Positions 33,811 through 62,444 of a DNA stretch of 64,000 nt are shown here, piece by piece (position 1 is the first letter of the stretch; each line of letters opens with the position of its first letter). Made by a program: the position numbers and the translations under genes. The stretch spans positions 3,404-67,403 of the IMG/VR virus record IMGVR_UViG_3300020469_000041, one strand, 5' to 3'. The stretch is from a virus. Below the pieces are notes generated by a model that was given only the letters and a program-made list of their open reading frames with translations, was not told the DNA's origin and searched no databases.

Positions 33811-34072
33811 TTTTGCCTTCATTGTAAGCATCCATAAGTGAAGAACCCGCGATATAATCTTGAGTTTCTTTATCAGTATAATACATGTTTTCTTCTTTAA
33901 AGCACTCTAAACTTCCTGGTGCTTGGTGACCTGCCTTTTTGACAGTGGCTGTAAGCTTGTTGTAATAGTTTTTTGGCTTTGAATAAACCCTCTTAACAGC
34001 ACTTTTAAATTCTTTTTCAGCTCGAGCTTTTTCTGCTGCGGCCTTGATCATTTGCATTCTATCCATATACAT
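33794..34072 (-). CDS. hypothetical early protein
   Basis: GAGGA RBS, directly downstream of a sigma70-type promoter. Confidence 0.55.
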   Translation of the reverse strand: MYMDRMQMIKAAAEKARAEKEFKSAVKRVYSKPKNYYNKLTATVKKAGHQAPGSLECFKEENMYYTDKETQDYIAGSSLMDAYNEGKNDWDY

Positions 34073-34091
34073 TCCTCACTAAATAATATAT

Positions 34092-34120
34092 ATTATAACA
34101 TACTTTAAACAAAAAGTAAA
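34092..34120 (-). promoter_or_regulatory. sigma70-type early promoter
   Basis: TTTACT-N17(ending TGT)-TATAAT with A-rich UP element. Confidence 0.78.
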
Positions 34121-34138
34121 GGTTTTTTTTCAATTATT

Positions 34139-34384
34139 TTAAACTTCTTCAATAGTAATTCGATATTGCTTACCGTTTACATCTTTACACAAAATAGTTT
34201 TTCGTGTAGACTGCATCCAACCGGTTTTATGAAGATCCATTTTTACATTGTCAACATGACTAATTAAACCATGAGTATTTTCAGAATCTGATTGTAATCC
34301 TGGCTTAATAATTGTGTGAGCAATATAGTCGCAATATGCCATACTTACTCTAGGCGTATTCATTTTAGTAAAATCCTGTATCAT
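34139..34384 (-). CDS. hypothetical protein (start re-assigned to MIQDFT)
   Basis: ends D.NGKQYRITIEEV; ATGA overlap with upstream stop. Confidence 0.5.
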   Translation of the reverse strand: MIQDFTKMNTPRVSMAYCDYIAHTIIKPGLQSDSENTHGLISHVDNVKMDLHKTGWMQSTRKTILCKDVNGKQYRITIEEV

Positions 34385-34623
34385 ACTACTGCCTCCCCGA
34401 ACATGGATTTCCAACAAGTTGGAGTACAACCTGAGATCAAAAACTCTCTTTGATCCACAGTTGCCTCTGGAAGAAGATCTTGAATAAGACCATCTCCACG
34501 CAGGTACGACATGTACTGATCTTCAGTACATGCAATGTCCATTCCGTTTTGCTCGCCCGTTACGGGACTTGTTTTAATTACAGTTACCATCGCGTCATAT
34601 TCTCCTGTGTATCCGCCGCACAT
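34381..34623 (-). CDS. conserved phage hypothetical protein
   Basis: S..TG....MDI, G.LIQD..P.....QREFLISG.TP..W motif. Confidence 0.6.
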   Translation of the reverse strand: MCGGYTGEYDAMVTVIKTSPVTGEQNGMDIACTEDQYMSYLRGDGLIQDLLPEATVDQREFLISGCTPTCWKSMFGEAVV

Positions 34624-34624
34624 A

Positions 34625-34846
34625 TTATTTTACCCATACTTTATTGTATTTGGAAGGAAGATCATCACAAGAGTAATCATCACCATTTGCATAATTTACA
34701 ACACCTACGCATTCATTAGTAGTATTAGACCAATAAACATCTGGCATATCTAATGCGCTTTCTACAGCATTGACTGCCACTCCAAAAATACCACCAGCCA
34801 ATGCACCAATTACTACAGCTTTTACTTTATCTTTATTACTCAACAT
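34625..34846 (-). CDS. hypothetical membrane-anchored protein
   Basis: N-terminal TM; PDVYWS....CV.V..YSC..LP.KY. Confidence 0.5.
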   Translation of the reverse strand: MLSNKDKVKAVVIGALAGGIFGVAVNAVESALDMPDVYWSNTTNECVGVVNYANGDDYSCDDLPSKYNKVWVK

Positions 34847-35121
34847 TACGCCGCCTCAATAATAGTTAGTGGACAATTCCAAAGATGACCATCAATTCTT
34901 ACAACCGCTTTAGTTCGATTAATTTTAGTAACCTCACCAAATTGAACACCATTTCTAGATCCGTTAACTTTTACTTTAGAACCAACTGAAAGAGTAGATT
35001 TAACGGATCGAGCTTTCAAAGATCTTAGCTGCTTTTGCTTAGCATTTATCAAAGTAATAGCTTGATTCATTTCTTCAGTAGATGAAATGCTGTTGATTGC
35101 GTTTATTAGAGATTTTTTCAT
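34846..35121 (-). CDS. hypothetical early protein (SH3/KOW-like C-terminus)
   Basis: VGSKVKV...G.VTKINRTKAVV; first gene after a promoter. Confidence 0.5.
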   Translation of the reverse strand: MKKSLINAINSISSTEEMNQAITLINAKQKQLRSLKARSVKSTLSVGSKVKVNGSRNGVQFGEVTKINRTKAVVRIDGHLWNCPLTIIEAA

Positions 35122-35157
35122 AAAGTTTTTCCTTTCCTTATCATTTAATATAGGTAT

Positions 35158-35187
35158 ATTCTATCATAGTTTTAAGCAAATGTAAAC
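35158..35187 (-). promoter_or_regulatory. sigma70-type early promoter
   Basis: GTTTACA-N17(ending TGA)-TAGAAT. Confidence 0.72.
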
Positions 35188-35241
35188 AGTTTTTTTCATT
35201 TATTTTACACTTTGTGTGACCAAAATTCAATATTGGGTACT

Positions 35242-35655
35242 CTAAAAACATTTGTCATATAGTTTTTTTTCAAGCTCGTATGCTTCTTGCTCCCATGGCG
35301 CTGTTTTGTATTGATTATCACTACACTCTTGACCTTTCCATTCAAGTGAATATCCATTAAGTTCACCACGAAGATATTGTTTAGCATGTACCATTTCATG
35401 AGCAAGAGTTTGCATCATCATTTCGTATGGGATTTTTTCTCCATCAGACTTTCTAGCTATCTGTATCGTGACATAACCTTCTTTTGTATCACCCCAACAT
35501 AAACCCTGTGATTCATCATCTAATACTGTTTGAAATTTAACAAATATAACTTTAGACCACATACGATCAATTTTTAATTCTTTTGAAAGTTTTTGGACAT
35601 AAGCCATTACTTTCTTCTTATGCTTAATTTGTCCTTTAAGAACAAATATGTTCAA
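35242..35655 (-). CDS. zincin-like (HExxH) metallopeptidase; start probably TTG near 35655
   Basis: TLAHEMVHAKQY...PWEQEAY. Confidence 0.7.
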   Translation of the reverse strand: MNIFVLKGQIKHKKKVMAYVQKLSKELKIDRMWSKVIFVKFQTVLDDESQGLCWGDTKEGYVTIQIARKSDGEKIPYEMMMQTLAHEMVHAKQYLRGELNGYSLEWKGQECSDNQYKTAPWEQEAYELEKKLYDKCF

Positions 35656-35840
35656 GCGGCAGCTCCAATAAAGGCATAACGTGGGTTGGCACAAGAAATC
35701 ATACTGACTTCATCAAAACCTAACAGAACAAAACCGTCCATAGGGTCGGTACCTGCTTCAAACATAACCAGGTCGTAACCGGCACGGAACTCTTTAACTT
35801 CTTTGATGTCTACTGGGATAACGTTCATTGTGATATTCAT
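35652..35840 (-). CDS. hypothetical early protein
   Basis: first ORF after a promoter. Confidence 0.45.
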   Translation of the reverse strand: MNITMNVIPVDIKEVKEFRAGYDLVMFEAGTDPMDGFVLLGFDEVSMISCANPRYAFIGAAA

Positions 35841-35873
35841 TTTGAGCCTTTCTGTATTAGTTAATATAAGTAT

Positions 35874-35902
35874 ATTCTATCACAGTTTTACACATATGTA
35901 AA
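35874..35902 (-). promoter_or_regulatory. sigma70-type early promoter
   Basis: TTTACA-N17(ending TGA)-TAGAAT with A-rich upstream tract. Confidence 0.72.
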
Positions 35903-35933
35903 GGTTTATTTTCACTTTTTTTAGATCTTTTTG

Positions 35934-37757
35934 TTATAGCCCATATAACTTTGGTGAATATATGGTTATAAGCTCGTCTTTTCCTTTCACTTTGATATTA
36001 CCTATTTCATCGCATCTATATCCAGGAGGTAGTTGATTCTTAGTGAACGATGATATAATTGTTTTGTATTCTATATACTCATGCCGCGCTGCTGTAGCCT
36101 CAAGTCTAGCGGCAAGATTGACTGCATCTCCAATAACTGAATAGTCAAATCTGGATTCACTACCCATGTTACCAACAATACAATCACCGGTGTTAACGCC
36201 AGTACCAACATTAATGTCAGGCAAACCCCTGGCAGAATATAACTTTTTAAGTTCATTTGTTTTAGCCTCTATTTCTATCGCTGATTTAACTGCCATTTCA
36301 GCATGATTTTCGCACGGTAATGGCGCGTTCCAAAATGCCATTATACAGTCACCCATATATTTGTCGATGGTTCCACCGTTTGCCAATATGATCTTTGTCA
36401 TAGCATCAAGGAATTCATTGACTAATTCTACTAATCCTTCAGGATCATCATTATTTTTATAGTGTTCAGATATAGGAGTAAACCCACATATATCCATAAA
36501 TAAAAATGTCATTTCTTTTCTATCACCACCAAGCTTCAAAAGAGATGGATCATCTTGTAATTTTTGAACCATGTCGGGTGATAAGTATGTACCAAATTGT
36601 TTTTTGATTTCTTCTTTTAATTTAAATGTTACATAAAATCTATTAAAAGAAGCATGTGCAAATACTAAAACTGAAGCCATAATAGGATATAAAACATCTA
36701 ATAGTATTAATGATTCCATCCAATACCAATAACCTATTGAAAACCAGCCAGCCATTAAACCTATAGATCCAATTGCAGAAAACCATATTGGAGTTTTATA
36801 AACAATAAGAAGAATTAGTAAACATGAAAGTAAAATAACAAATAGTTCTAATTGATCAGCATACCACGGTCTCTGGATTTGTATACCATTGACAACAGTT
36901 GAAATTAAATGCGCTTGTATATCATGAGGTAACATTGCACCAGTCGGTGTGGCTACGGGATTTATCAGGCCTCCAGCGCTAAGGCCAAGGATAATTATTT
37001 TATCGTTTGGTATTGGATCTCCAAATGATACTCGCTCATATTCGTTCCAGTAAGCTATTTGAACATTTGAATTTGGTGTTGTATACATAGGAGGAAGTGA
37101 TCCCATTCGAACCCACTCGACTCCAGCTTCTTTTATTTTAATTGCTAAATTGGGTTGAAATTCAAATACTCTTAATACTTCTAATGCTACTGATGGATGT
37201 AAATAATTATTAGCTAATATGACTAATGGTGATTCTCTTACAATACCATCAACTGAAGGAGCAGTTGTAACTGTTCCAACTCCCTGTGCATTTTCTTTTA
37301 TAATTGGATTACGTATACCTTTGTACGAGTATAGCCAATCAGAAGAAACTCCTTTACCAAGTTTACCAAATCCAATTGATGGTTTATCGCCTTGTGGTTG
37401 ATTGCTTAATAATGCTGATAAAATCACATCTCGATTTAACATTGCTTCAGATAGTGTAGCATCTTGATCAAATCGATCTGGTTCGGTAAATCCCATATTA
37501 AAAACATATACGTTATTTTCTGGAGAATTGTTTAACCAATCAGCATAAATATTTCTACTAAATGGAAACTGACCATAAAAATTTAAAGCCTTTTCATCGA
37601 TATCGACAATGACTATATTATCAGATTTAATAGGTTCTTGGTAAGATTGAAGAGAATCAAAATAGTTTAAACGAAATTGTTCAACTAGTTTGGGATCTAA
37701 AACTCTAGTTGATAATAATAAAGCTATGGTAAGTAAAACTACTTTCCAATTGTGCAT
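35934..37757 (-). CDS. CHASE2-domain class III adenylate cyclase
   Basis: CHASE2 motifs IVIVDIDEKAL..YGQFPFSR and DGIVR..PL; three TMs; catalytic FMDICGFT, IDKYMGDCIMAFW, GDAVNLAARLE, VKGK. Confidence 0.93.
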   Translation of the reverse strand: MHNWKVVLLTIALLLSTRVLDPKLVEQFRLNYFDSLQSYQEPIKSDNIVIVDIDEKALNFYGQFPFSRNIYADWLNNSPENNVYVFNMGFTEPDRFDQDATLSEAMLNRDVILSALLSNQPQGDKPSIGFGKLGKGVSSDWLYSYKGIRNPIIKENAQGVGTVTTAPSVDGIVRESPLVILANNYLHPSVALEVLRVFEFQPNLAIKIKEAGVEWVRMGSLPPMYTTPNSNVQIAYWNEYERVSFGDPIPNDKIIILGLSAGGLINPVATPTGAMLPHDIQAHLISTVVNGIQIQRPWYADQLELFVILLSCLLILLIVYKTPIWFSAIGSIGLMAGWFSIGYWYWMESLILLDVLYPIMASVLVFAHASFNRFYVTFKLKEEIKKQFGTYLSPDMVQKLQDDPSLLKLGGDRKEMTFLFMDICGFTPISEHYKNNDDPEGLVELVNEFLDAMTKIILANGGTIDKYMGDCIMAFWNAPLPCENHAEMAVKSAIEIEAKTNELKKLYSARGLPDINVGTGVNTGDCIVGNMGSESRFDYSVIGDAVNLAARLEATAARHEYIEYKTIISSFTKNQLPPGYRCDEIGNIKVKGKDELITIYSPKLYGL

Positions 37758-37758
37758 A

Positions 37759-37926
37759 TCACCAATCCTTTATTATATTTACCATTATTAGTATACCACA
37801 CAATATATTTATTCCTACTATAATTGTTCGAACAACAGCTATAGCATTTTCACTATCAGGATTATACCCGTCTTCTTCATCAAAAGCGCCTAAAGAATGC
37901 TTCCATATTTGCCAATACTTTTTCAT
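37759..37926 (-). CDS. small membrane protein (55 aa); not in ORF track
   Basis: MKKYWQIWKHSLGAFDEEDGYNPDSENAIAVVRTIIVGINILCGILIMVNIIKDW; ATGA overlap with upstream curlin stop. Confidence 0.6.
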   Translation of the reverse strand: MKKYWQIWKHSLGAFDEEDGYNPDSENAIAVVRTIIVGINILCGILIMVNIIKDW

Positions 37927-38696
37927 TGTTGTGTGACTGCAACATTACATCCACCTATTGTCAAACAATTTTGCATAAGATTGTATGACTGAGTTGGACC
38001 ACCAGTTTGTATTAAATTTAAGTTTGTGGGTGATGTACCATCAAGAGTAACTGTTGCATTGTGTGCTCCATAATGTTGATGAATACTAACTTGATTTCCA
38101 TCGTTATTAATCGTTAAATCTAAATCTTTATCACCAGAGCCAGCTTGAGTAAACCATACACTATTATTATCACTATTAATATCAATTTTTAATTCATGAT
38201 TGGGATCAGCTGTACCAGACTTTTGTCCTCCTTTTACCCAATTATTGTCTCCAGTAATATTAATTTCCATTTCATGCCCAGGATCTTCATGTGTATCTCT
38301 GCTACAAGTTGTACTTGTAGAATATATAAATTTACATCCTTGACCTACATCAACGCTGTTTGAATCACCGTCAACATCTATCCAAATTTTATTAATATCA
38401 GTACTATTAGTATTATTCCATTGTTCTACTACAATTTGATTATAATCACCATCTATTCCTTGATTTTTTTTAAGTACTTGATTGTTATTTCCTTCTTGTA
38501 AAACTGCAGTATCTAGTTGATAACCAGATAATACTGTATCAATCAAATTATAATCGCCCTTTTGCTGATATTCTAATTTAAGATTATCACCAGTTTGAGT
38601 TAAATATATTTCATTATCAGCCCAAACTACTCTAAAACTACCAATTACAACAAAAGCTACTAAAGCTAAAATAGTTGTTAATAAAATTCTTTTCAT
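37923..38696 (-). CDS. curlin-repeat secreted protein (CsgA/CsgB-like)
   Basis: signal peptide, then Q/N/G-rich x-Q-x-G-x-x-N / I-x-G-D-x-N repeats; in csgG/csgF operon. Confidence 0.75.
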   Translation of the reverse strand: MKRILLTTILALVAFVVIGSFRVVWADNEIYLTQTGDNLKLEYQQKGDYNLIDTVLSGYQLDTAVLQEGNNNQVLKKNQGIDGDYNQIVVEQWNNTNSTDINKIWIDVDGDSNSVDVGQGCKFIYSTSTTCSRDTHEDPGHEMEINITGDNNWVKGGQKSGTADPNHELKIDINSDNNSVWFTQAGSGDKDLDLTINNDGNQVSIHQHYGAHNATVTLDGTSPTNLNLIQTGGPTQSYNLMQNCLTIGGCNVAVTQQ

Positions 38697-39862
38697 TATT
38701 GCACCTGTGTTATATTAATAATAATACCCTGTCCGTCTCCTAATATTATTTCAGATTCTTTTTGATCTGTAATAGTTCTAAGTGTTGCGTTTTGAGACAA
38801 TAACATTGTTATGCTAATAACTCCATCAACATCTCTAAAAAATTTAACTGTTCCATCACCTTTATCTAATAAAGTATTATATTGACTATCAACGTCGAAT
38901 CCTAATTTCGTTCCATCGAGAGCTACTTCACTAGATAAAGCACTTCTATCTAATGCAGTCTTTTTATCTAAGTCTAATACTATATCTAATATATCTTGTA
39001 AAAAGTCAACATCTAAATAATCTATATCTAATTCTGAAAACTCTAATTCGTCATAAGCCAAATAATCTGTTTCTAGTTCATTAAATTCTAAAAAGTCTAC
39101 ATCTAATATATTGTCACTTTCGTTTTCATTTAGTATACCTTCTTCAGCTTTAACTTCTTTTATTTCTTTTGGTTCTGATACAATAAAAATATTACTGATC
39201 ATATTATTATCTATACCAGAAAGAACTACTGGTCTACTTGGAGCTGTATCATATGAAGATATGACTGATGCTTGATATGCCTCTTCTAAAGTGACAGTAC
39301 CACCAGCATTAGATATTATTATTTTGCCAGAAGCCTTTCCAGTTTCTTCATCGGGTAAAAGTATGATCAACGATTGACCTATTTCATCAATCGTCGTTGT
39401 AAAATCTGTACCCAGTATAGCTATTTCTGCCGTGGGTGTTGATAAATTAATATTAGATTTATTTATTCTTTTACCACGACCAGATGAAAATCTAGCCGTG
39501 CCTTGTACCATACGAATAGCCATCTCAGACTTAGATGGATCTGGATCGTAATAAGCCTTATCAATATAAATTTTTGTGTGTTCTATAATTGATAATTCTT
39601 CTTCATCTAAAAACTCAATTAATATTCTACCATTACCAGTAATGGCTGTATCTTTTAACTCAATTCCTGGAGTAGAAACTTTAGATACTATTATTTCTTC
39701 GCCTCCGGTGCGAATAAGAGAAGCTACTCCAGTCTGTTCAGTTATATCTCCTATAAATTCGGCTGCAGTAGCCGAACTTATAAGAAATAAATTAGTTAGC
39801 GTCAGACTGAATAATATTAATATCCGAACGATCTGTAATGAAGGTTGCATCAAGTATTGCAT
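38696..39862 (-). CDS. FecR-domain secreted/periplasmic protein
   Basis: signal-like N-terminus; D...T..GR..I.F.D, G.ARF.SG, TPTA.IAILGTDF FecR motifs; acidic repeat region. Confidence 0.8.
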   Translation of the reverse strand: MQYLMQPSLQIVRILILFSLTLTNLFLISSATAAEFIGDITEQTGVASLIRTGGEEIIVSKVSTPGIELKDTAITGNGRILIEFLDEEELSIIEHTKIYIDKAYYDPDPSKSEMAIRMVQGTARFSSGRGKRINKSNINLSTPTAEIAILGTDFTTTIDEIGQSLIILLPDEETGKASGKIIISNAGGTVTLEEAYQASVISSYDTAPSRPVVLSGIDNNMISNIFIVSEPKEIKEVKAEEGILNENESDNILDVDFLEFNELETDYLAYDELEFSELDIDYLDVDFLQDILDIVLDLDKKTALDRSALSSEVALDGTKLGFDVDSQYNTLLDKGDGTVKFFRDVDGVISITMLLSQNATLRTITDQKESEIILGDGQGIIINITQVQ

Positions 39863-40640
39863 TATTGGTAACTCCAGTTGTGGAACCAGTATTTTGTCCT
39901 ACAAAAATAAAGTTGTAGTCACCAGTTACACCAACTGTTTGATTATTATCTGCGCCATCTTCCATTGTAGTTTGAACCCAGTTATCTGATCCAATTATAT
40001 CCCAATTAAAAGTCGCATTAGTTGAATTAACAAATACATTTGTTGTATTATCGTCTCCTTGTATATCTAAATCCATGTCTAAAGAATCAGCTGATCCAGC
40101 AGTAGGATTCCAAGAACCCCAAAACGCAGTTTGGCCGCTATTAGTTCTTGACCACGTAGTTCCATTTACAGTCCAAAATTGTTCTGCATTGGATTGATTC
40201 CAAAGAGGAGTAGATATATTATAAACATCATCGTCATTACCAGCTCTAAATACAACTTCGTTAGTATTACCAACTATTGCAGAATCAATAGTTATAGTAT
40301 CAGCAGTAGTTGCGACGCCAATTTTTTGATTCCATTTGTTATAGTTACCAGTAATAAAGTTATTAATAGTAGATCCAGTAGTAGCAATTGTACCAAACAT
40401 TTTATTATAATCACCATCAAGTTTTAAGTCTAAATATGAATTAGAAACAGACATGGTCATATCTATTGACGTACCAGTAAAATCGTCTCCACCATATTTG
40501 TTACCAGCACCAATTTGCTGAATAGTAAGCTCAACATTGTCACCAGTTTGAGCTATCCATATTTCATTATCATTTGCATCGCTAAATGCATTTGACGTTA
40601 ATATAATTCCTAATATTGCGAACAATCCACTTTTATTCAT
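39792..40640 (-). CDS. curlin-repeat secreted protein (CsgA-like)
   Basis: signal peptide, DNEIWIAQTGDN..L.IQQIG.GN, then repeated (I/V)xGxxN units; directly downstream of csgG. Confidence 0.7.
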   Translation of the reverse strand: MNKSGLFAILGIILTSNAFSDANDNEIWIAQTGDNVELTIQQIGAGNKYGGDDFTGTSIDMTMSVSNSYLDLKLDGDYNKMFGTIATTGSTINNFITGNYNKWNQKIGVATTADTITIDSAIVGNTNEVVFRAGNDDDVYNISTPLWNQSNAEQFWTVNGTTWSRTNSGQTAFWGSWNPTAGSADSLDMDLDIQGDDNTTNVFVNSTNATFNWDIIGSDNWVQTTMEDGADNNQTVGVTGDYNFIFVGQNTGSTTGVTNNAILDATFITDRSDINIIQSDAN

Positions 40641-41526
40641 GTTCATCATTTTCTCCTGTTAACGGATGTTTTTCGTTTACCCCATCGTGCTGATGAGGAT
40701 GCCTATGTCCATCCTTTATTACCCAAAGGCCTCTATCATGCCCTTGGTAAATTAACTCTAATACAGCTTCTTCAATTGCAGCTCGCGTAGCGTAAGTCAC
40801 ACTTTCGTTAAAGCCTATACCGTCTTCAATCTCGATAAGTTTAGTATCCATATCAACAAATCGAAATACATCATATCCACCACCTACAGACAAGATAGAT
40901 TTTTTAGTCTGTACGTTCAACAAAATTTCACCCGTAAGAGTAGAGGTAGCTCTTAAACTTACGATTACCGAATCTCTTTTATACTGAGTTGAAGAACCAA
41001 TACCTAAGTATCTAGCTCCTCTACCTCCAGTCTCTAAGTTGGTATCATATCCTATAATACCACCTTCTAAAATTATCCCTGCAAAAAGCATAGGTTGAAG
41101 TTTTTTATCTTCAGCTGTTTTTTCAAACTCTTCTCTAGCTGATCTAATAATCTGTCTTTCTTTAACTAAATTATCAAGTCCAGCTCTTTCAACTACTCTA
41201 AACCATGTACCTTTACCGGCGGTTTTAAGTGCGTCAATAACAAATGCTTCAGCACCTTGTGTTACAGCAGTAGAAAAATCAGCTAAATTTTCTCTACTTT
41301 TTCTTTGTCCAGTTAAATCTTGAAACTCATAAACAGCAACAATGGGCTTAAATTTTGCTGCAGGTAAATTTGCTAATCTTTTAGAAGCTGGTAATGTTAC
41401 AACTACTGCCTCTTCTACACATTCTCCATATTGTTTCATAAATGTCATAGTGCAACTATCTGTCATACTCGGAAAGCTTGAGCATCCAGTTAAAAATAAC
41501 AATCCAATAACGAAAATATATTTCAT
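40633..41526 (-). CDS. csgG: curli secretion channel lipoprotein CsgG
   Basis: lipobox LTGC; VAVYEF.DLTGQRK, FSTAVTQG, WFRVVER.GL.NL.KERQIIR, EGGIIGYD.N..TGG.GARYLGIG. Confidence 0.93.
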   Translation of the reverse strand: MKYIFVIGLLFLTGCSSFPSMTDSCTMTFMKQYGECVEEAVVVTLPASKRLANLPAAKFKPIVAVYEFQDLTGQRKSRENLADFSTAVTQGAEAFVIDALKTAGKGTWFRVVERAGLDNLVKERQIIRSAREEFEKTAEDKKLQPMLFAGIILEGGIIGYDTNLETGGRGARYLGIGSSTQYKRDSVIVSLRATSTLTGEILLNVQTKKSILSVGGGYDVFRFVDMDTKLIEIEDGIGFNESVTYATRAAIEEAVLELIYQGHDRGLWVIKDGHRHPHQHDGVNEKHPLTGENDEHE

Positions 41527-42050
41527 TAGAAAGATCCAGCACCTATAGGAACATCAAGTGTTGTTGTTGTTCCATCCTCGCTCGTAACAGTAATCCTAAT
41601 AATATCTGTTCCATCTTCTCCGCCTCCTACAATTGTTTCGTAAGTAATTGAATTGCCTTCTATATCGAAGGTTCCATATGTTGATGCAGTTTCATTACCA
41701 AACATATTGTCTACCAATTGCTTAGCAATTTGAGCATATATTCTACTTTCTAAATTTCTTAAAAATTTAGCTTGTGTTGTATTATTTGCAGCTCTTTCAG
41801 CTTTATCAATTGCTGCTTGTATATCTTCTCTAATTTTATCTTTTCTAGATTTCTCTTGATTTTCAATAGTTAACCAATGAGCTGAAGTTCCAACTCCACT
41901 AAATGACGGATTCTTAAATTTAAAAGTAATTCCATCTGCATTTGCGAGTGGACTTAACAATAGTGCTAAAATAAGTGCTGGCCAAAACAATATTGAAAAC
42001 CAAACTAATGTTTTAATACTCCATTCATTTAATTTATCTAATATACTCAT
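41526..42050 (-). CDS. csgF: curli assembly component CsgF
   Basis: signal peptide then F.FKNPSFSG (CsgG-binding N-terminus); F..NLESRIYAQ; C-terminal DGTTT.L.VP; adjacent to csgG. Confidence 0.85.
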   Translation of the reverse strand: MSILDKLNEWSIKTLVWFSILFWPALILALLLSPLANADGITFKFKNPSFSGVGTSAHWLTIENQEKSRKDKIREDIQAAIDKAERAANNTTQAKFLRNLESRIYAQIAKQLVDNMFGNETASTYGTFDIEGNSITYETIVGGGEDGTDIIRITVTSEDGTTTTLDVPIGAGSF

Positions 42051-42316
42051 TTCTTTTTCTTTTTCCTCTCGTTTTCTTTATATTCTAATACTACATTTAC
42101 TTTTTGTTGTAGTCTAATCATATCTTGATCAAGCATACGAGTTTGATCAATTACTCTTATAAGAGCAAAATGCATTTCTTCTAGTTTTGGCTCAATCTTT
42201 TCACCAATAAACCACCATACATAATATATAAAATAACCTAACCCAACCATCATTACAATAGGAAATCCATATTGTTGTATTGCGTCAACTAAGCTAAATT
42301 CTACTACAACTTCCAT
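42047..42316 (-). CDS. small membrane protein (TM + coiled coil)
   Basis: QYGFPIVMMVGLGYFIYYVW; IRVIDQTRMLDQDMIRL. Confidence 0.6.
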   Translation of the reverse strand: MEVVVEFSLVDAIQQYGFPIVMMVGLGYFIYYVWWFIGEKIEPKLEEMHFALIRVIDQTRMLDQDMIRLQQKVNVVLEYKENERKKKKK

Positions 42317-42319
42317 TAT

Positions 42320-42493
42320 CTATTTCCAATTATAATATGGATTATCAAACCATCCCATATAGTAAGATAATACAAATATTCCACAAAAAATAATGACTAT
42401 GGCTAACCCTTTCCAAGTGTCTGAATCACTCCAATCTTGTCCCGCTTGTATTTTTTTCCACGTTTTTCCATTTATTCTAGTCTCTTCTGACAT
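42320..42493 (-). CDS. small membrane protein (57 aa); not in ORF track
   Basis: MSEETRINGKTWKKIQAGQDWSDSDTWKGLAIVIIFCGIFVLSYYMGWFDNPYYNWK. Confidence 0.5.
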   Translation of the reverse strand: MSEETRINGKTWKKIQAGQDWSDSDTWKGLAIVIIFCGIFVLSYYMGWFDNPYYNWK

Positions 42494-42773
42494 CCAATTT
42501 CCCGTCCTCTACAAAATTTTCTGCACGGGCTATTCTTTCAATGTCTGGAGTTAACTCTAAAGCACTACTCACCAATAAATCTATTTTAATCATGTCGTTA
42601 TTCATCGCTCTAGCGCGATTCTCCAGTGATTTACAAAACATGGTAAGTGTTCCTATTTGTTCTACTATACCATTTAATATTTGTTTTATCACTAAAAATA
42701 TAAAAAAGCCCATGACAATACTTCCGGCGATAGGTGCACCCACATCGCCTATTAAATTAAATACTTCACCCAT
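42477..42773 (-). CDS. small membrane protein, paralog-like to 42047-42316
   Basis: VGAPIAG..MGFFIF.VI; L.NR...MNNDMIKID. Confidence 0.6.
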   Translation of the reverse strand: MGEVFNLIGDVGAPIAGSIVMGFFIFLVIKQILNGIVEQIGTLTMFCKSLENRARAMNNDMIKIDLLVSSALELTPDIERIARAENFVEDGKLDVRRD

Positions 42774-42774
42774 A

Positions 42775-43020
42775 TTAGGTTGAAGTTGCTACACTTACTA
42801 CTTTAAGTCCAGCGCCACCTTCTAAAGTTTCTGCGGGTAGTTTTTTTACAAGTTCAATTGTTTTAGATTGAACTGTCATTGTACCAACTACTGTTGATCC
42901 AGTTTTATGAGTCATAACTAAATCTCCTGCAGTACTATTATATACTCGTACTAATGTAGCATTACCTACTGCAGTTGCTGATGTTAAGTTAGTCTCACTT
43001 CCCATTAATCTGATTTTCAT
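42775..43020 (-). CDS. hypothetical (probably structural) protein
   Basis: 81 aa beta-rich; AGGAG RBS. Confidence 0.5.
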   Translation of the reverse strand: MKIRLMGSETNLTSATAVGNATLVRVYNSTAGDLVMTHKTGSTVVGTMTVQSKTIELVKKLPAETLEGGAGLKVVSVATST

Positions 43021-43032
43021 TCTTATCTCCTA

Positions 43033-43497
43033 TTAGATATTTTCTAAGCGTGACATAAGTCTTTCCGCTCTGTTTGTTACTTGCTTATGCCATCTAGAAT
43101 CTCTTCCTTCAACAGCTGCTTTTTTCCAGTCACCACTTTGCAAAGCCGCATTGTGATTTTTGAATTTACTTAATCTGGTTCTACCCATATTAAACATCAT
43201 ATTAGCAATTACTTGCTTTACTTCTTGAGGATATCCATCCCATGCTTCATGTAAGATCTTACAGTCTCTGATGACTGATTCAACGTCTCGTTCGAAACAT
43301 TCAATTGTTCGTTCCTCTGACACTGCGGTTCCCACATCCATTCCAAACTCTGGATCAGATTTAAGGACCAGGTGGCCAATTCCAAATGTTGCGTACCCCA
43401 GATGATCTTTATAAATTTCATTAACCTGACCCTCGTCGATTATTAATTGTTCTCTTAATTGATCTATGTCAATATCAGTTTCTTTATTCCAAAACAT
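43033..43497 (-). CDS. T4-type lysozyme (GH24 endolysin)
   Basis: DEG....Y.DHLGY.T.GIGHL catalytic region; NMMFNMG..RL.KF; DSRW..QV..RA.RL. Confidence 0.9.
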   Translation of the reverse strand: MFWNKETDIDIDQLREQLIIDEGQVNEIYKDHLGYATFGIGHLVLKSDPEFGMDVGTAVSEERTIECFERDVESVIRDCKILHEAWDGYPQEVKQVIANMMFNMGRTRLSKFKNHNAALQSGDWKKAAVEGRDSRWHKQVTNRAERLMSRLENI

Positions 43498-43516
43498 AAT
43501 TTACTCTCCGTTATAA

Positions 43517-44125
43517 TTAAAATAATTCTAAAAAGTTAGATATAGGACTTTCAACTTCAGTTCCAAAATGATCAGCAAATGCAAATGGTGCACCACCAGG
43601 CGATCCTGAATAAAGCCAACTTGCTATTGCGTTACTTGTTCCATTATTATATAATTGAAAATCAGTAGCATCAGTTCGATTAAATGACGAATTTGGTGAT
43701 CCTGAATTGTTACTCTGATCAACATAAAAATCTACTCGTGACCATCCACTATTAGTAAATGTGACAGAACCACTTGTTGCTTTTAATGTAAATACGAATG
43801 TAGCAGTATTTATATTACTAATAACACTAATTGCGACATTTCCTGATCCATAAGGACTGCTAAAGTTACCTAGTGGTCCACCACTAAGTGTACTAGTAGT
43901 CATATTCACAGGATTGCTGTAAAATTGAGTGACAGCAGTCCAGGTTGAACTAAATAAAACACTAGATGTTCCATAAAAATCAGAAACTTGGATTTCGCCA
44001 GAACTAGGAACCGCTGCTGGTCCTAAGCCTCCAGAATAGTATTCAGATAAAGATATTGGATTTGATCCTCCAAATTCAGTTTGAATATCACTAAAAGCTA
44101 CTTGTCCAGTTGATACTATAGCCAT
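43517..44125 (-). CDS. putative virion/tail-tip protein
   Basis: N-terminal G.....DIQTEFGGSNPISLSEYY...P.SG.I..SDFYG module common in marine phage structural proteins; S/T/G-rich C-domain. Confidence 0.55.
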   Translation of the reverse strand: MAIVSTGQVAFSDIQTEFGGSNPISLSEYYSGGLGPAAVPSSGEIQVSDFYGTSSVLFSSTWTAVTQFYSNPVNMTTSTLSGGPLGNFSSPYGSGNVAISVISNINTATFVFTLKATSGSVTFTNSGWSRVDFYVDQSNNSGSPNSSFNRTDATDFQLYNNGTSNAIASWLYSGSPGGAPFAFADHFGTEVESPISNFLELF

Positions 44126-44388
44126 TATTTAATAATCTCCGTAATTAGATTTTCGAATTGTTCTATTTTTTCTACTCTATTAGGCCAAAGAATATATTCT
44201 TTCTCTGGATTTTTCTTTAAATTTGATAATAAAGGAAGAATTGAATTATATAGCTTATTTAGCTTTTCTTCTGTGACGGCAAGTTCTGCAGTTTTACTAT
44301 CTGCAGTTTTTATAGTGGACTGTACCGCTTCTAGCTCGTTTTCATCAACGGCAGTAAATCCAAAATCGAAATTTAGTAAATCACTCAT
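44125..44388 (-). CDS. conserved T4-like hypothetical protein
   Basis: FDFGFTAVDE.EL...LYN.I.PLL.NLK.NPEK.YI.WPNR. Confidence 0.6.
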   Translation of the reverse strand: MSDLLNFDFGFTAVDENELEAVQSTIKTADSKTAELAVTEEKLNKLYNSILPLLSNLKKNPEKEYILWPNRVEKIEQFENLITEIIK

Positions 44389-44405
44389 ATTTATCTCCTT
44401 ACTGT

Positions 44406-44413
44406 TATTTATA
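44406..44413 (-). promoter_or_regulatory. T4-type late promoter TATAAATA
   Basis: exact motif upstream of the AGGAG RBS of the 44388 ORF; heads the lysozyme-curli gene run. Confidence 0.7.
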
Positions 44414-44436
44414 CAAGTAAAGAAGCTAAAAGAGGA

Positions 44437-44769
44437 TTATGAGGTGGTTTGATGATATTCTGGCATTTGATAACTAAGAGTTAGTTCTTCTCCCGCTTTA
44501 ATATCTTTAGATGTAATTAAATAATATTCTGGATCTTTTAACTCAGAATTATGAAGAATATTTTTACAAGATGGATTTTCACTATGATTTATAAATGCTC
44601 CAAGTGCAGTTCTTATCCATTCACCATGATAAAAAATTCTCATGAGTCCTAGATTAGTACCTTCTGATATATCATCAGTAGCAAAAGCTCCGAGACCGTC
44701 AATAGTACTTTCCTTTATTGTAACACAACTGGGTAATGGTCTCCATGTATTAGAAAAATCAATCGTCAT
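44437..44769 (-). CDS. SET-domain protein (putative lysine methyltransferase)
   Basis: S.I.GLG.FA..DI..G, FINHS..P.C, DI.AGEELT.SY. Confidence 0.85.
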   Translation of the reverse strand: MTIDFSNTWRPLPSCVTIKESTIDGLGAFATDDISEGTNLGLMRIFYHGEWIRTALGAFINHSENPSCKNILHNSELKDPEYYLITSKDIKAGEELTLSYQMPEYHQTTS

Positions 44770-44872
44770 CTCGAGCTTCCTTTATTTGCTTTAGTATTTC
44801 TATTAATTCTTCTATAGTATTTACGTCTGTGGAATTTTCAGTATCTATCTCAACATTTATATTTATTTTCAT
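44759..44872 (-). CDS. small hypothetical protein (start re-assigned to MKININ)
   Basis: ATGA overlap with upstream small ORF. Confidence 0.45.
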   Translation of the reverse strand: MKININVEIDTENSTDVNTIEELIEILKQIKEARDDD

Positions 44873-45048
44873 AATCCAATTAATGCCCAGCCATGATTGG
44901 CTATCGCATTTAGAATAATAAACCAACAAGTTGCCATATGAGTTATCCACCATATAGTGCGTATAACTGCTACAGCGTCAGCTTGATTATCAGTTTCTCC
45001 TACTTTCTGACCTAAACTTTTAGCCCAGATTCTCCACCATTTATACAT
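44869..45048 (-). CDS. small membrane protein (59 aa), paralog of 37759-37926; not in ORF track
   Basis: MYKWWRIWAKSLGQKVGETDNQADAVAVIRTIWWITHMATCWFIILNAIANHGWALIGL. Confidence 0.6.
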   Translation of the reverse strand: MYKWWRIWAKSLGQKVGETDNQADAVAVIRTIWWITHMATCWFIILNAIANHGWALIGL

Positions 45049-45211
45049 TACCGCGTCTTACAAGTTCATTACGAATTTTTTGCTTTTGTTTTGGTTGAGT
45101 ATTATTATTATCTAATGCTGCTTGCAACACATCAGTTGAAGTTGATCTCATGTAATAGTTTTGGACATTACCTTTGCGATCTTTTGTTGTTTCTTTAAAT
45201 TTTACTGGCAT
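45041..45211 (-). CDS. small basic hypothetical protein (start re-assigned to MPVKFK)
   Basis: ends K.KQKIRNELVRRG; GGAG RBS. Confidence 0.5.
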   Translation of the reverse strand: MPVKFKETTKDRKGNVQNYYMRSTSTDVLQAALDNNNTQPKQKQKIRNELVRRGNV

Positions 45212-45807
45212 TACATTTCTCCAATAATATGTTTGTATATTTCTTTCCATTTCCAATATCTTGGAATATGACCGTTAAATGGATAATAAGCATTATGATC
45301 ATGAGCCACAAGAATAGATCGTAATCCGTAACTATCACCAAGTTCAGCATTTACTGGTTTATCTTCGATCCACCAACATTTACTATTTGCGTATTCTAGT
45401 AAAGCATCATCTTTATCTGCACCGCATGGTAAATATATATAATCATCCCATATTTCTTCACCAAATAAAAGATTCAAGTTTTGTGTTCTTAATCTTTGAG
45501 CATATTTATTGCTACTTAAAGATGATATACAATGAAACTTAAATCCGTGCAACATGTTTAATCTTTTCATGTAGTACACAGCATCTCTTAATGGCGGTAA
45601 AAATGCAATGGCAGCAGAATCGTTAAATTCAGCAACCATTGCTTTACCTAATTCTTTCGATATTCCAAATCTTTGACCAACGTTGTATTGTCGATCATCA
45701 ACTGTTGGATAACCTTTGTGATTCATATATTGAGTAAATGAATATTCCCAATCACATAAAACACCATCACAATCAACTAAAATTATATTGTCTTTCATTT
45801 CCTTCAT
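45211..45807 (-). CDS. HAD-family 5'(3')-deoxyribonucleotidase-like protein
   Basis: ILVDCDGVL.DW motif I; K..; WIEDK..N motif IV. Confidence 0.8.
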   Translation of the reverse strand: MKEMKDNIILVDCDGVLCDWEYSFTQYMNHKGYPTVDDRQYNVGQRFGISKELGKAMVAEFNDSAAIAFLPPLRDAVYYMKRLNMLHGFKFHCISSLSSNKYAQRLRTQNLNLLFGEEIWDDYIYLPCGADKDDALLEYANSKCWWIEDKPVNAELGDSYGLRSILVAHDHNAYYPFNGHIPRYWKWKEIYKHIIGEM

Positions 45808-45831
45808 AAGTCCTTACCAGTTTATATGTAT

Positions 45832-45861
45832 ATTATAACACACTTTCTGGTAAAAGTAAAC
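45832..45861 (-). promoter_or_regulatory. sigma70-type early promoter
   Basis: GTTTACT-N17(ending TGT)-TATAAT. Confidence 0.78.
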
Positions 45862-45873
45862 AGTTATTTTCAT

Positions 45874-47013
45874 TTATTTCAATATCTCTGATATTTCATA
45901 TCCTAAATTTAAAAACCAATTCATATCCCTGCCTCGTGTAACTTCCGCTGCAGTACCTAAACGAATACCACTTGTTTCAGCAAAACTTCGGGGATCATTC
46001 GGTACTCCGTTTTTGTTTACAGTAATTCCATGCTTTTCTAATAGATCGGCAGCTTCTCTTCCGCTGATTTCTTTATCACTTAAATCTACAAGAACAATAT
46101 GACTGTCTGTTCCTCCAGTAGCAATACTATAGCCACCCATTTTAAGACCATCAGCAAGTAATTTAGCACTGTTTTTTACTGCTGTAATATAGTCACGAAA
46201 CTCTTGAGTATTTGCTTCTATAAAGCATTGTGCTTTTGCAGCAATAATATTCATAAGAGGGCCGCCTTGTGTTCCTGGAAATATTGCACCATTTATTTTC
46301 TTTGTTAGCTCAGGATTATTCCACAGTATCATACCACCACGAGGACCACGAAGTGTCTTATGTGTTGTACTCGTTACCGCATGAGCATAGGGCAAAGGAC
46401 TAGGGTACTGTCCTCCAGCAATCAGTCCACTATAGTGTGCCATATCGCACACAAGATATGCGTTTACTTCTTTTGCGATATCTCTGAATGTAGACCACTC
46501 AATTTCTCTTGGATACGCACTTGCTCCTGCAACAATAACTTCAGGATTATATCTTTTGGCAAGACTTCGTACTTGTTCATAATCAATCCAACCTCTGTCG
46601 TTTACTCCGTAAGTATATGCGTTGTAATACTTTCCGCTATGCGTTGGAGGTGCTCCATGACTAAGGTGTCCACCACTTGCAAGATCCATGCCAAGAATCG
46701 TATCTCCTGGTTGCATCAGTGCTTGGTAGACTGCTGAGTTTGCATTGACCCCGCTGTGAGGTTGTACATTTGCAAACTTGCATCCATATAGCTTTTTCAC
46801 TTCTTCTATCGCAAGAGTTTCTATTTCGTCCATGTATTCACAGCCGTTATAGTATCTCTTGCCTGGATAACCTTCTGCATATTTATTTGTAAAGACACTA
46901 CCACAAAGCTCGCGAACAGCGTCACTCGCAAAGTTTTCACTTGCTATTAATTCAATAGTAGAAGCTTGTCTATTGTATTCTTGGTTTAAAATTGAACGTA
47001 TCTTATTGTCCAT
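45874..47013 (-). CDS. glyA: serine hydroxymethyltransferase
   Basis: LIASEN, NKYAEGYPGKRYY.GC, NVQPHSG, GGHLSHG, TTHKTLRGPRGG (PLP Lys), FPG.QGGP. Confidence 0.97.
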   Translation of the reverse strand: MDNKIRSILNQEYNRQASTIELIASENFASDAVRELCGSVFTNKYAEGYPGKRYYNGCEYMDEIETLAIEEVKKLYGCKFANVQPHSGVNANSAVYQALMQPGDTILGMDLASGGHLSHGAPPTHSGKYYNAYTYGVNDRGWIDYEQVRSLAKRYNPEVIVAGASAYPREIEWSTFRDIAKEVNAYLVCDMAHYSGLIAGGQYPSPLPYAHAVTSTTHKTLRGPRGGMILWNNPELTKKINGAIFPGTQGGPLMNIIAAKAQCFIEANTQEFRDYITAVKNSAKLLADGLKMGGYSIATGGTDSHIVLVDLSDKEISGREAADLLEKHGITVNKNGVPNDPRSFAETSGIRLGTAAEVTRGRDMNWFLNLGYEISEILK

Positions 47014-52133: not shown

Positions 52134-52607
52134 TTACAATCCTTCGATATAATTTGATAAAACTTTAATATCGTTTTGAGATAAAATAGAAGCTTGAGAC
52201 CACATAATTTGAGATCTTTTTCCTCTTTGTTCTCTATTTTGATATTGTTTTAATGCTGTTTCTATATATAAGGATGTATTACCCGCCAATGCTGGAAATA
52301 TTCCCATACCCTCGCCTTTCATTCCATGACATCCAGCGCATCCATTCCATGATGCTGGTGTAGGATCTATTTCAACTACTGGAGCCTCAATAACACCTGC
52401 TGCAATTAATCTTTCTTCTTCTAACTTTGCGAGTCGAGCAACCTCGCGTCTTTCTAATAATTGTTCATAGCACTCATTTATACATGCACTTTGTGGATTA
52501 TGTCCTCTTTGTGGTGCATGACTAAACGCAACTGAGATGATAAAAGCTGCAGCACAGGATATTAAAAAAGGAAATAATATATGTGGATTCACGTCTTTAT
52601 GACTCAT
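52134..52607 (-). CDS. membrane-anchored class I cytochrome c (c553/c4-like)
   Basis: N-terminal TM; CAGCHG heme motif; G.G..P.LAG, Y....LK.Y, distal Met (SQIMW), LS..DI..L..YI. Confidence 0.85.
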   Translation of the reverse strand: MSHKDVNPHILFPFLISCAAAFIISVAFSHAPQRGHNPQSACINECYEQLLERREVARLAKLEEERLIAAGVIEAPVVEIDPTPASWNGCAGCHGMKGEGMGIFPALAGNTSLYIETALKQYQNREQRGKRSQIMWSQASILSQNDIKVLSNYIEGL

Positions 52608-53701: not shown

Positions 53702-54082
53702 TTAAATTTGTTTTTCTCTTACTGCTTTCACTGCACTTTTTATAGCATCCTCCGCCAAAACAGAACAATGTATTTTTACTGGAGGTAATGCTAATTCTTC
53801 AGCAAGTTCAGTGTTCTTTATTTTTTCAGCATCATTTATGTGTTTACCTTTAACCCATTCAGTCAATAAAGAACTAGAAGCTATTGCTGAACCGCATCCA
53901 TAGGTTTTAAATTTAGCATCAACAATAACATCATCATCGTTTATTCTAATTTGTAACCTCATTACATCGCCACAGGCTGGAGCTCCAACCATTCCTGTAC
54001 CTACGTTTTTATCTGAATCATCCATGACTCCAACATTTCTTGGATTTTCATAGTGATCAATAACTTTCTCGCTGTAAGGCAT
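53702..54082 (-). CDS. iscU: Fe-S cluster scaffold IscU
   Basis: YSEKVIDHYENPRNVG, GAPACGDVM, FKTYGCGSAIASSS, LPPVKIHCS. Confidence 0.96.
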   Translation of the reverse strand: MPYSEKVIDHYENPRNVGVMDDSDKNVGTGMVGAPACGDVMRLQIRINDDDVIVDAKFKTYGCGSAIASSSLLTEWVKGKHINDAEKIKNTELAEELALPPVKIHCSVLAEDAIKSAVKAVREKQI

Positions 54083-54091
54083 AGTTTACTC

Positions 54092-62241: not shown

Positions 62242-62444
62242 TATTTATCCTTTACTGCCTTAATATAACCTGGCATATTTGCTTTCGGATCACCTAAATT
62301 CTTAGCACCTTTCTTTAACGCTTCAGCTGAATTTCTAGCTTTTACTACAACCTTTTGGCCCTTTTTTAATTTGTTAATAGACTTTTGTACAGTTACTGTC
62401 CAAAATTCCATACCCTCATTTCTTAATTCTTTAAAGCTTTTCAT
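62241..62444 (-). CDS. small basic protein, putative internal head protein
   Basis: MKSFKELRNE N-terminus. Confidence 0.55.
   Translation of the reverse strand: MKSFKELRNEGMEFWTVTVQKSINKLKKGQKVVVKARNSAEALKKGAKNLGDPKANMPGYIKAVKDK

Follow-up and report, generated by a model that had tools for sequence, protein, structure and literature searches.

The stretch of DNA analysed here, called the window below, comprises 64,000 nucleotides of the IMG/VR virus record IMGVR_UViG_3300020469_000041 (positions 3,404 to 67,403 of the record). It carries a block of tightly packed, co-directional genes that is conserved as a unit and that joins a curli-type secretion pore (CsgF and CsgG) and two paralogous curlin-like proteins with signal peptides (cur285 and cur257) to a secreted FecR-fold protein and a CHASE2 receptor adenylate cyclase (Table 1). 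Our working model, to which we give an even chance, is that CsgG and CsgF export the curlins while FecR and the CHASE2 cyclase monitor the state of the envelope or of secretion and make cyclic AMP (cAMP).

Conservation of the module

All genes of the block lie on the minus strand, and the listed open reading frames (ORFs) overlap or are spaced by at most 3 nt. The original prediction, made from the letters of the window and their ORFs, had described a gap-free co-directional run of csgF, csgG, curlin, FecR, curlin and cyclase genes, and this run is upheld by Pfam and by sequence profiles. The matches to CsgF, CsgG, FecR, CHASE2 and Guanylate_cyc are all above the curated Pfam cut-offs, and all five named proteins fall into PHROG families (E 6e-44 to 1.5e-171). 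The order p98-p89-CsgF-CsgG-cur285-FecR-(cur257)-cyclase was found in 43/43 viral loci whose contigs run on for 5.6 kb or more upstream of a cyclase homologue; at least one curlin-like gene was present in all 43, and the second one, cur257, in 27. An independent viral survey seeded with CsgG, in which 36 of 80 loci were usable and the other 44 were too short, returned FecR in 36/36, the cyclase in 32/36 and p98 together with p89 in 32/36. The proposed linkage is therefore kept in related phages, and the conserved module reaches upstream to 42773, beyond the boundary at 42050 that had been drawn for it.

The composition of the block is already published, and the window holds a new, divergent member of the published module type. 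A 2022 study in mSystems gives the module of podo- and myo-pelagiphages as histidine kinase gene(s) (HK(s)), CsgF, CsgG, CsgA/B, FecR, a second CsgA/B and adenylate cyclase, and infers an alphaproteobacterial origin for it (PMC9599517; this source, PMC7029224, PMC9004378, PMC5192318 and PMC13001267 are cited for the parts of their text that were available). CsgF, CsgG and three further linked genes were reported from pelagimyophages (PMC7029224), and the available part of PMC9004378 treats the pore only and proposes a role in lysis timing. In GenBank, genes of Methylophilales phage Melnitz are annotated as CsgF, CsgG, curlin repeat, FecR domain, curlin repeat and adenylate/guanylate cyclase, and Pelagibacter phage HTVC008M has the same order. 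The statement in the original prediction that csgF and csgG alone had been reported is thus outdated. PMC9599517, in its available text, does not use the word 'CHASE', and we found no paper on the combination of CsgG with CHASE2 in the literature searched. What the present analysis adds to the published composition is the CHASE2 identity of the sensor, the start of the module at p98/p89, the 55-aa insertion, the FecR-CHASE2 pairs outside curli, the Caulobacterales operons and the scans for cNMP-binding domains described below.

Relatives of the cyclase occur on at least 598 IMG/VR contigs, and the module was found at 65/65 ocean stations, with metatranscriptome hits as well, among which the supplement includes HTVC008M gene 17 (FecR) and gene 19 (the cyclase) (PMC9599517). 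From these counts the module is one of the commonest multi-gene accessory blocks in phages of the most abundant marine bacteria.

Source of the DNA

The window is part of a 67.4-kb record with a CheckV completeness of about 39%. PHROG matches to baseplate, tail tube and head-closure proteins, a gp32-like single-stranded DNA-binding protein, a helicase loader, ribonucleotide reductase and PhoH mark a T4-like myophage, and the baseplate wedge protein (gp6) is about 40% identical to those of the Pelagibacter phages HTVC008M and Mosig and of Melnitz. By its gene content, the window is a piece of a marine myophage of T4-like type.

The block is not chimeric. Overlapping contigs from an independent run of marine DNA tile 34000-46000 with few differing positions, and the flanks of the block recur in the closest viral contigs. 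Near-identical DNA (at least half of the sampled words) was present in 6 runs of 4 studies, of which 3 may be the source itself. The possibility, named with the original prediction, of a chimeric segment of a host contig is ruled out by the independent run, which places the block in its phage context. Exact-match pieces of cur285, csgG, p98, an 81-aa gene and the lysozyme were found in contigs of one metatranscriptome library (X18 and X19, apparently one library filed twice), contigs that span only parts of the block, and an exact piece of the cyclase in a third library, X20, of uncertain type. These matches, for which DNA carry-over is possible, agree with the transcript hits reported by PMC9599517.

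The CHASE2 adenylate cyclase

The cyclase, an inner-membrane protein, has a short N-terminal hydrophobic segment (seen by eye), a periplasmic CHASE2 domain at residues 10-316 (106.9 bits in Pfam), transmembrane (TM) segments at about 298-370, with hydropathy placing hydrophobic segments at 298-332 and 347-370, and a class III domain at 411-601 (69.9 bits). In class III cyclases the positions of D422 and D470 bind metal, that of K466 serves the substrate together with S540 at the Thr/Asp position, and those of N547 and R551 serve the transition state. These residues and R536 are all present, each being kept in 68-70 of 70 viral homologues, which points to purifying selection on catalysis; D422, K466, D470, S540, N547 and R551 were aligned to Pseudomonas aeruginosa CyaB (3r5g). 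The metal-binding Asp, Lys and NxxxR residues named by the original prediction are thus confirmed. Besides CyaB, the best solved relatives are an engineered bacteriophytochrome-Cya2 chimaera (6fht) and Synechocystis Cya2 (2w01), and the protein is about 50% identical to its HTVC008M counterpart. The ATP-type active site is intact, and cAMP synthesis is predicted.

The secreted FecR-fold protein

The FecR protein (Pfam score 34.6 bits) was modelled with a mean pLDDT of 69.4 as a signal peptide, a beta-domain at about 38-226, an acidic disordered linker at about 243-311 and a small C-terminal beta-domain at 313-385; the beta-domain carrying the FecR fold is itself confidently modelled. It is similar to the C-terminal signalling domain of PupR (Z 15.0, root mean square deviation (rmsd) 2.9, 139 aligned residues) and to the Parabacteroides anti-sigma factor BDI_1681 (Z 12.8); Foldseek gave a match at E 8e-5. 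The fold starts at about residue 38, straight after the signal-peptide-like helix, and the N-terminal cytoplasmic anti-/pro-sigma part and TM anchor are not present. No Sigma70_r2 match, and hence no extracytoplasmic function (ECF) sigma factor, was found in the 67.4-kb record, which is about 39% of the genome. The original prediction was right that an ECF sigma gene is missing from the record; its signal relay by FecR, taken in the sense of the Fec system, is not borne out.

Over its first 75 or so residues, the FecR fold is similar to 5ix9, a 'cell surface anchoring domain' (Z 6.8, rmsd 1.9, 73/76 residues, 25% identity over 64 columns) that belongs to the part of a giant secreted adhesin by which it is retained in the periplasm. 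No FecR-family structure in the PDB was matched by the family's sequence profile, which gave one weak match, again to 5ix9 (E 0.065). Residues 310-376 have weak structural matches (Z ≤ 4.0); a curlin repeat as the C-terminal domain was considered and rejected (hhalign of alignments A1 and A2, probability 1.8%). A complex prediction for CHASE2 residues 18-300 with mature FecR (35-388), using paired 16-row alignments and run without controls, gave a score of 0.00 (mark 0.32), which counts neither for nor against a complex. As a side observation, the Gly-Thr dipeptide G151-T152 is invariant across an alignment of 16 FecR-fold proteins; the self-cleavage of FecR and FoxR takes place at a Gly-Thr bond (PMC9249621).

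The curli pore and its candidate subunits

CsgG scored 167 bits against a Pfam cut-off of 20.8, is 51.7% identical to the CsgG of HTVC008M and has a lipobox cysteine, Cys15, that is nearly invariant across the family (alignment A6). CsgF scored 55.3 bits against a cut-off of 25.8, and the match covers profile positions 5-132 of 132. Neither cur257 nor cur285 has a Pfam match of its own. The family profile of cur257, built from an alignment of 13 rows of which 2 are bacterial curlins, matched two solved structures of curli subunits, 8c50 (E 3e-11) and CsgA 8enq (E 1e-6). Its AlphaFold model is all-beta (pLDDT 74.8); in a wider structure search the top match was again the CsgA structure 8c50 (Z 19.0, rmsd 8.8, 203 aligned residues), with generic beta-solenoids at Z 12-16, and Foldseek of the model against the PDB returned nothing at E ≤ 0.001. 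By profile and by model, cur257 is a curlin.

The other subunit, cur285, has in common with cur257 an N-terminal motif and a G-x-x-N periodicity (BLASTP E 7e-6). Curlin_rpt was matched at E ≤ 0.1 by 7/14 members of its family, the family profile matched CsgA at E 0.028, and the viral cur285 hidden Markov model (HMM) matched bacterial curlins at 1e-23 to 5e-30. The hhalign match between alignments A2 and A3 (E 3e-35) was set aside, since both include the same pair of bacterial curlins. An insertion of about 45 residues in cur285 (A3 columns 163-208) is common only to the two closest contigs, L003 and L006.

No PF10627 (CsgE) match was found at E ≤ 0.1 in the 67.4-kb record, and no CsgC or CsgD among the scanned ORFs of the window, as the original prediction had stated for all three genes. 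CsgE, the periplasmic gate of the gammaproteobacterial type, is not a requirement of the alphaproteobacterial type VIII secretion system (T8SS) according to PMC9599517. By sequence, a CsgG pore, CsgF and secreted curlin-repeat subunits of a curli-type system are present together, and formation of a fibre is a prediction from them.

Bacterial counterparts and origin

In a scan of species-representative genomes for the cyclase, of which the best 80 of 589 relatives were used, the closest bacterial loci, two short contigs of metagenome-assembled genomes (MAGs) aside, are those of a Caulobacteraceae MAG (L085) and a Henriciella MAG (L086). Both have CsgF, CsgG, curlin(s), FecR and the CHASE2 cyclase in the phage order, flanked by chromosomal genes (TonB receptors, glycosyltransferases, FAA hydrolase), and a second Caulobacteraceae genome (L164) has the same arrangement. 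A single-protein genome scan with the L085 FecR returned itself and one relative of 93%; a FecR alignment scan, for which one pattern was used, missed Henriciella. The bacterial scan seeded with CsgG gave 79 loci: 6 phage-type MAG contigs, the 3 Caulobacterales operons, 2 truncated contigs grouping with HTVC008M and 68 ordinary curli loci, in which neither FecR nor the cyclase was matched by the viral HMMs at E ≤ 1e-3. In a CsgG tree of 104 rows (24 viral rows randomly subsampled, rows below 180 aa dropped, root placed arbitrarily on two Nitrospirota), the CsgG proteins of the FecR/cyclase type group in a single clade (SH-aLRT 97) that lies within alphaproteobacterial CsgG and has an unresolved base. 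We read this as a single origin of the linkage of curli, FecR and CHASE2 cyclase, which exists in free-living bacteria too. The Caulobacterales operons qualify the abstract of PMC9599517, which places these genes outside bacterial T8SS operons; Fig. 3, 4 and 6 of that paper may themselves depict bacterial operons that include FecR or the cyclase.

Two side observations concern these scans. Contigs with the phage-type module including p98/p89, some of 121-142 kb, sit in MAG bins labelled Synechococcus, Sphingobacteriales, Saprospirales, Planctomycetaceae, Rhodobacterales and Candidatus Pelagibacter (L166, L167/L186, L168/L183, L169/L185, L170, L171, L172, L173 and L165/L184); they are likely phage DNA that was mis-binned or co-binned, not bacterial curli operons. 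About 440 nt downstream of the L085 cyclase, a 197-aa ORF (L085:11470-12063) matches PycTM, the membrane domain of Pycsar effectors (E 8.8e-25); an unrelated multi-TM ORF stands at this place in the Henriciella locus (BLASTP E 1.2).

FecR-fold proteins also stand beside CHASE2 cyclases where there are no curli genes. We scanned the two nearest upstream ORFs (107 ORFs, with two giant ones left out) of 56 further bacterial CHASE2-cyclase loci (L087-L162), and a Pfam FecR protein was among them in 8/56. Three of the eight are giant proteins of 1,573-1,733 aa (L105, L144, L156), that of L144 with RTX repeats. Across the 56 loci an ABC exporter was found in 12 and HlyD in 9 (type I secretion, divergent), and several have TPR/SlipAM outer-membrane proteins. 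In Burkholderia and P. aeruginosa a FecR/LysM protein gene adjoins that of a CHASE2 histidine kinase (PMC5192318). The combination of an exported or periplasmic FecR-fold protein with outer-membrane machinery and a CHASE2 sensor is thus a recurring one, and the curli version is one of its forms.

Small membrane proteins and gene neighbourhood

The module starts with p98 and p89 (98 and 89 aa), paralogues that each have one N-terminal TM segment and a coiled coil. They stand directly upstream of CsgF in 43/43 cyclase-seeded viral loci and have no homologues in the bacterial module loci; they are phage-specific members of the module. PMC9599517 labels the genes before csgF 'HK(s)', and the available supplement has no entry that identifies them. 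Matched by position, p98 and p89 would be these genes, and if they are, the label is not borne out: there was no HisKA or HATPase match, no Pfam kinase at E ≤ 1 in 28 family members and no invariant His. The only Pfam matches at E ≤ 1 were sub-threshold ones to YvrJ in 7/28 members (best E 0.073), profile searches of the PDB gave coiled-coil noise only, and in Atlas the proteins fall into viral-only clusters, with YvrJ at 0.87.

The 55-aa peptide had been counted as part of the module. It occurs at its position in 2/43 cyclase-seeded and 1/36 CsgG-seeded loci and has a 59-aa paralogue about 7 kb away in the same window, for which reasons we regard it as an inserted small gene and not as a module part. 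Copies of phrog_1679 stand at varying positions in L004, L007, L027 and L034, as a mobile small gene would. The 57-aa ORF has no phmmer homologue in 82 loci, and p98 and p89 abut in the 13 related loci with listed coordinates; the ORF is specific to the window and may be an insertion or not a gene at all.

Table 1. Genes of the module and selected neighbours in the window
Feature	Position	Strand	Annotation
HExxH protein, 121 aa	35242..35607		phrog_16532; weak SprT-like/Peptidase_M91 matches
CHASE2 receptor adenylate cyclase, 607 aa	35934..37757	-	Pfam CHASE2 E 1.7e-30 and Guanylate_cyc E 2.6e-19; phrog_35576 E 1.5e-171
55-aa membrane peptide	37759..37926	-	phrog_1679; inserted small gene
cur257, curlin-like secreted beta-solenoid protein 2, 257 aa	37923..38696	-	curlin profile and model matches
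Secreted FecR-fold protein, 388 aa	38696..39862	-	Pfam FecR E 2.7e-8
cur285, curlin-like secreted beta-repeat protein 1, 285 aa	39792..40649	-	G-x-x-N periodicity, shared N-terminal motif
CsgG outer-membrane lipoprotein pore	40633..41526	-	Pfam CsgG E 3.8e-49
CsgF-like curli assembly protein, signal peptide	41526..42050	-	Pfam CsgF E 9.7e-15; phrog_35372 E 6e-44
p89, p98 paralogue: one TM segment, coiled coil, basic C-terminus	42047..42316	-	phrog_18771
57-aa ORF, one hydrophobic segment	42320..42493	-	sits between p98 and p89
p98, single-pass membrane protein, C-terminal coiled coil	42477..42773	-	phrog_18771; first gene of conserved module
Phage lysozyme	43033..43497		Pfam E 4e-8
Paralogue of the 55-aa peptide, 59 aa	44869..45048		phrog_1679

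In the window a phage lysozyme gene stands directly upstream of the module. In 15/43 loci a lysozyme homologue is found no more than 2.5 kb upstream of p98; the lysozyme is not adjacent in 28/43, in HTVC008M or in Melnitz. The late promoter on which the original prediction had based a role in lysis timing is TATAAATA at 44406-44413, 18 nt before an ATG at 44388; the motif was observed 15 times in the window against 12.3 expected and is not enriched, and scans of the window for sigma-70 promoters and terminators stayed at chance level. The tie of the module to lysis timing, made up of the 15/43 neighbourhood and an unenriched promoter motif, is weak, and the claim is not supported. The HExxH protein is found within 3 kb downstream of the cyclase in 30/69 related viral loci and in none of the bacterial operons. 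Other accessory genes recognised by Pfam in the window encode a SET-domain protein, serine hydroxymethyltransferase, a cytochrome c-like protein, NifU and IscA-like Fe-S assembly proteins, a class 3 lipase and a zeta-toxin/AAA_33-like kinase (44437-44769, 45874-47013, 52134-52607, 53702-54412, 57044-57862 and 62431-63078).

Interpretation

In our working model, CsgG and CsgF would export the curlin-like subunits in the infected cell, and the subunits would polymerise on its surface. The FecR-fold protein would be an obligatory periplasmic accessory of this type of T8SS and, by analogy with the other FecR-CHASE2 gene pairs, the partner through which CHASE2 reads the state of the envelope or of secretion. 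CHASE2 would then release the cyclase, in the manner of Sinorhizobium meliloti CyaD1, which makes cAMP constitutively when CHASE2 is removed, and cAMP would act on a receiver other than a canonical protein binding cyclic nucleotide monophosphates (cNMP). It is possible that the state of the fibre is in this way coupled to cAMP.

Several observations weigh against this model. The main weakness of its signalling part is that, within the searches made for class III cyclases and cNMP-binding domains, the module would make cAMP without a recognisable reader. No cNMP-binding domain was found in the ORFs of the window or in any of 5 related phage genomes (HTVC008M and Melnitz, which are complete, and three contigs of 126-139 kb). 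Among 41 SAR11-family genomes at least 80% complete, sampled from the family to which a MAG titled Candidatus Pelagibacter belongs, a family that may not be that of the host of this phage, cNMP-binding matches were present in only 2 and class III cyclase matches in only 2; of the latter, one is the phage-type module contig binned in that MAG and the other an 898-bp fragment with seven TGA stops. The cAMP read-out of the original prediction therefore has no visible receiver in these searches. In addition, 48/56 of the closest bacterial CHASE2 cyclases have no FecR neighbour, cur285 is tied to curlins weakly and in part transitively, and no clumping was seen in Melnitz-infected cultures (PMC9004378). 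FecR occurs without the cyclase in 4/36 viral loci and in many podophages (PMC9599517), and this persistence suggests that the primary partner of FecR may be the T8SS, not CHASE2. Among bacterial relatives, receivers stand beside the cyclase in L098 (a cNMP-gated ion channel) and in L103 and L136 (GAF-HD proteins).

In a rather unlikely alternative, FecR and the cyclase would be uncoupled, FecR being purely a periplasmic accessory that replaces CsgE/CsgC by gating, chaperoning or plugging CsgG, and the cyclase travelling along as an independent enzyme of host manipulation. In its favour, FecR is more constant than the cyclase in the CsgG-seeded viral modules (36/36 against 32/36), the cyclase is only 'frequently' present according to PMC9599517, CsgE has no match in the record and the N-terminal part of the FecR model resembles the anchoring domain 5ix9. 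However, FecR genes adjoin CHASE2 genes also in bacteria that have no curli genes, and all three bacterial operons of this T8SS type keep both. The direct neighbourhood of the lysozyme and of three small TM proteins upstream of csgF in the window, the lysozyme homologues near p98 in 15/43 loci and the lack of clumping with Melnitz would fit a gated envelope pore of CsgG/CsgF that is pinholin- or secretin-like (PMC9004378), with the small membrane proteins acting as holin and antiholin, the cyclase as timer or superinfection sensor and fibres beside the point. We consider this unlikely, given that the lysozyme is not adjacent in 28/43 loci, HTVC008M or Melnitz, that every one of the 43 loci conserves a curlin-like gene, that free-living Caulobacterales keep the CsgGF-curlin-FecR-cyclase operon without phage lysis genes and that TATAAATA is not enriched.

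If the product does not address a cAMP receptor at all, the cyclase could drain ATP, supply cyclic nucleotides for export through the pore or interfere with a cyclic-nucleotide defence of the host, which would suit hosts without cAMP signalling. The 39/41 SAR11-family genomes without a match, for cNMP-binding and for class III cyclase each, the 0/5 related phages and the PycTM-like gene after the L085 cyclase point in this direction, but the cyclase has the Lys/Ser pair of ordinary adenylate cyclases and its best solved relatives are such enzymes, a sensor domain in the periplasm makes little sense for a simple drain, no PycTM neighbour was found in the Henriciella or phage loci, with no Pycsar effector (PycTM/PycTIR) next to the cyclase in the window, and among receptor families the search covered only the cNMP-binding domain. 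Such nucleotide chemistry seems to us very unlikely. Import of iron or a cofactor, with FecR as a regulator of the iron-dicitrate type and CsgG as an uptake channel, is an option discussed in PMC9599517 that the name of the FecR domain and the Fe-S assembly genes (NifU, IscA-like) elsewhere in the window would favour. We hold it to be extremely improbable: the protein lacks an anti-sigma region in the cytoplasm, the record gave no Sigma70_r2 match and the window ORFs scanned no TonB-dependent transducer, and the FecR fold also accompanies CHASE2 sensors and is part of giant RTX proteins that have nothing to do with iron. The recurrence of the FecR-CHASE2 arrangement, taken together with the missing anti-sigma part and ECF sigma factor, argues against an iron role.

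A bolder reading than the working model, which we think quite unlikely, would make the module a self-contained trans-envelope sensor in hosts otherwise without cAMP signalling. FecR would stay behind in the periplasm, as the retention module of a giant secreted adhesin does; its acidic disordered linker would run through CsgG, its C-terminal domain would touch the fibre outside, and load on the fibre or loss of the fibre would act through CHASE2 and cAMP on an unrecognised phage-encoded receiver. The cues would be contact with particles, sibling cells or superinfecting phage, and the candidate receivers would be the p98/p89 pair or the downstream HExxH protein.

If fibres are built, the module could alter aggregation, sinking and the encounter of phage and host in the open ocean. 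If the cyclase signals, a second messenger would enter hosts in which 39/41 genomes gave no match to a class III cyclase and, likewise, 39/41 none to a cNMP-binding domain.

Comparison with known systems

The phage protein has the FecR fold in common with the FecA-FecR-FecI system (PupR, Z 15.0), and differs from it in having no transmembrane anti-sigma architecture, no ECF sigma factor in the record and no TonB-dependent transducer with a signalling domain among the scanned ORFs. Closer in layout is the operon of Burkholderia and P. aeruginosa, in which a secreted FecR-domain protein stands beside a TM-CHASE2-3TM sensor like the phage pair (PMC5192318); there the sensor acts through a histidine kinase and its response regulator, LysM is present and there are no secretion genes, whereas the phage output is a cyclase. 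In S. meliloti, the CHASE2 cyclases CyaD1, CyaD2 and CyaK sense a plant protein by way of the outer-membrane barrel NsrA (PMC13001267), so that a CHASE2-TM-class III cyclase is cued via an outer-membrane component, as proposed for the phage, and the FecR-domain protein SMc02177 is a target of the same CyaD1/D2/K-Clr pathway. Differences are that cAMP is read in S. meliloti by the CRP-family protein Clr, of which no counterpart was seen in the phage, that there is no link to curli and that SMc02177 was dispensable for signal perception in the study concerned.

The E. coli csgBAC-csgDEFG system and the phage module have in common the CsgG and CsgF families and secreted Q/N/G-repeat beta-solenoid subunits. 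The phage subunits are twice as long, and the phage adds FecR, the CHASE2 cyclase and p98/p89, while CsgE is without a match in the record and CsgC and CsgD among the scanned ORFs. The operons of Caulobacteraceae and Henriciella (L085/L187, L164/L188 and L086/L190) agree with the phages in gene order, domain set and CsgG clade; they are chromosomal, have no p98/p89 and encode proteins 31-52% identical to those of the window, and transfer could have gone in either direction. The pelagiphage T8SS module of HTVC008M, Melnitz, the pelagimyophages and the HTVC023P-type podophages (PMC7029224, PMC9004378, PMC9599517) has the same genes in the same order, including the two small upstream proteins, and to this the divergent lineage in the window adds the 55-aa and 57-aa ORFs and a lysozyme directly upstream.

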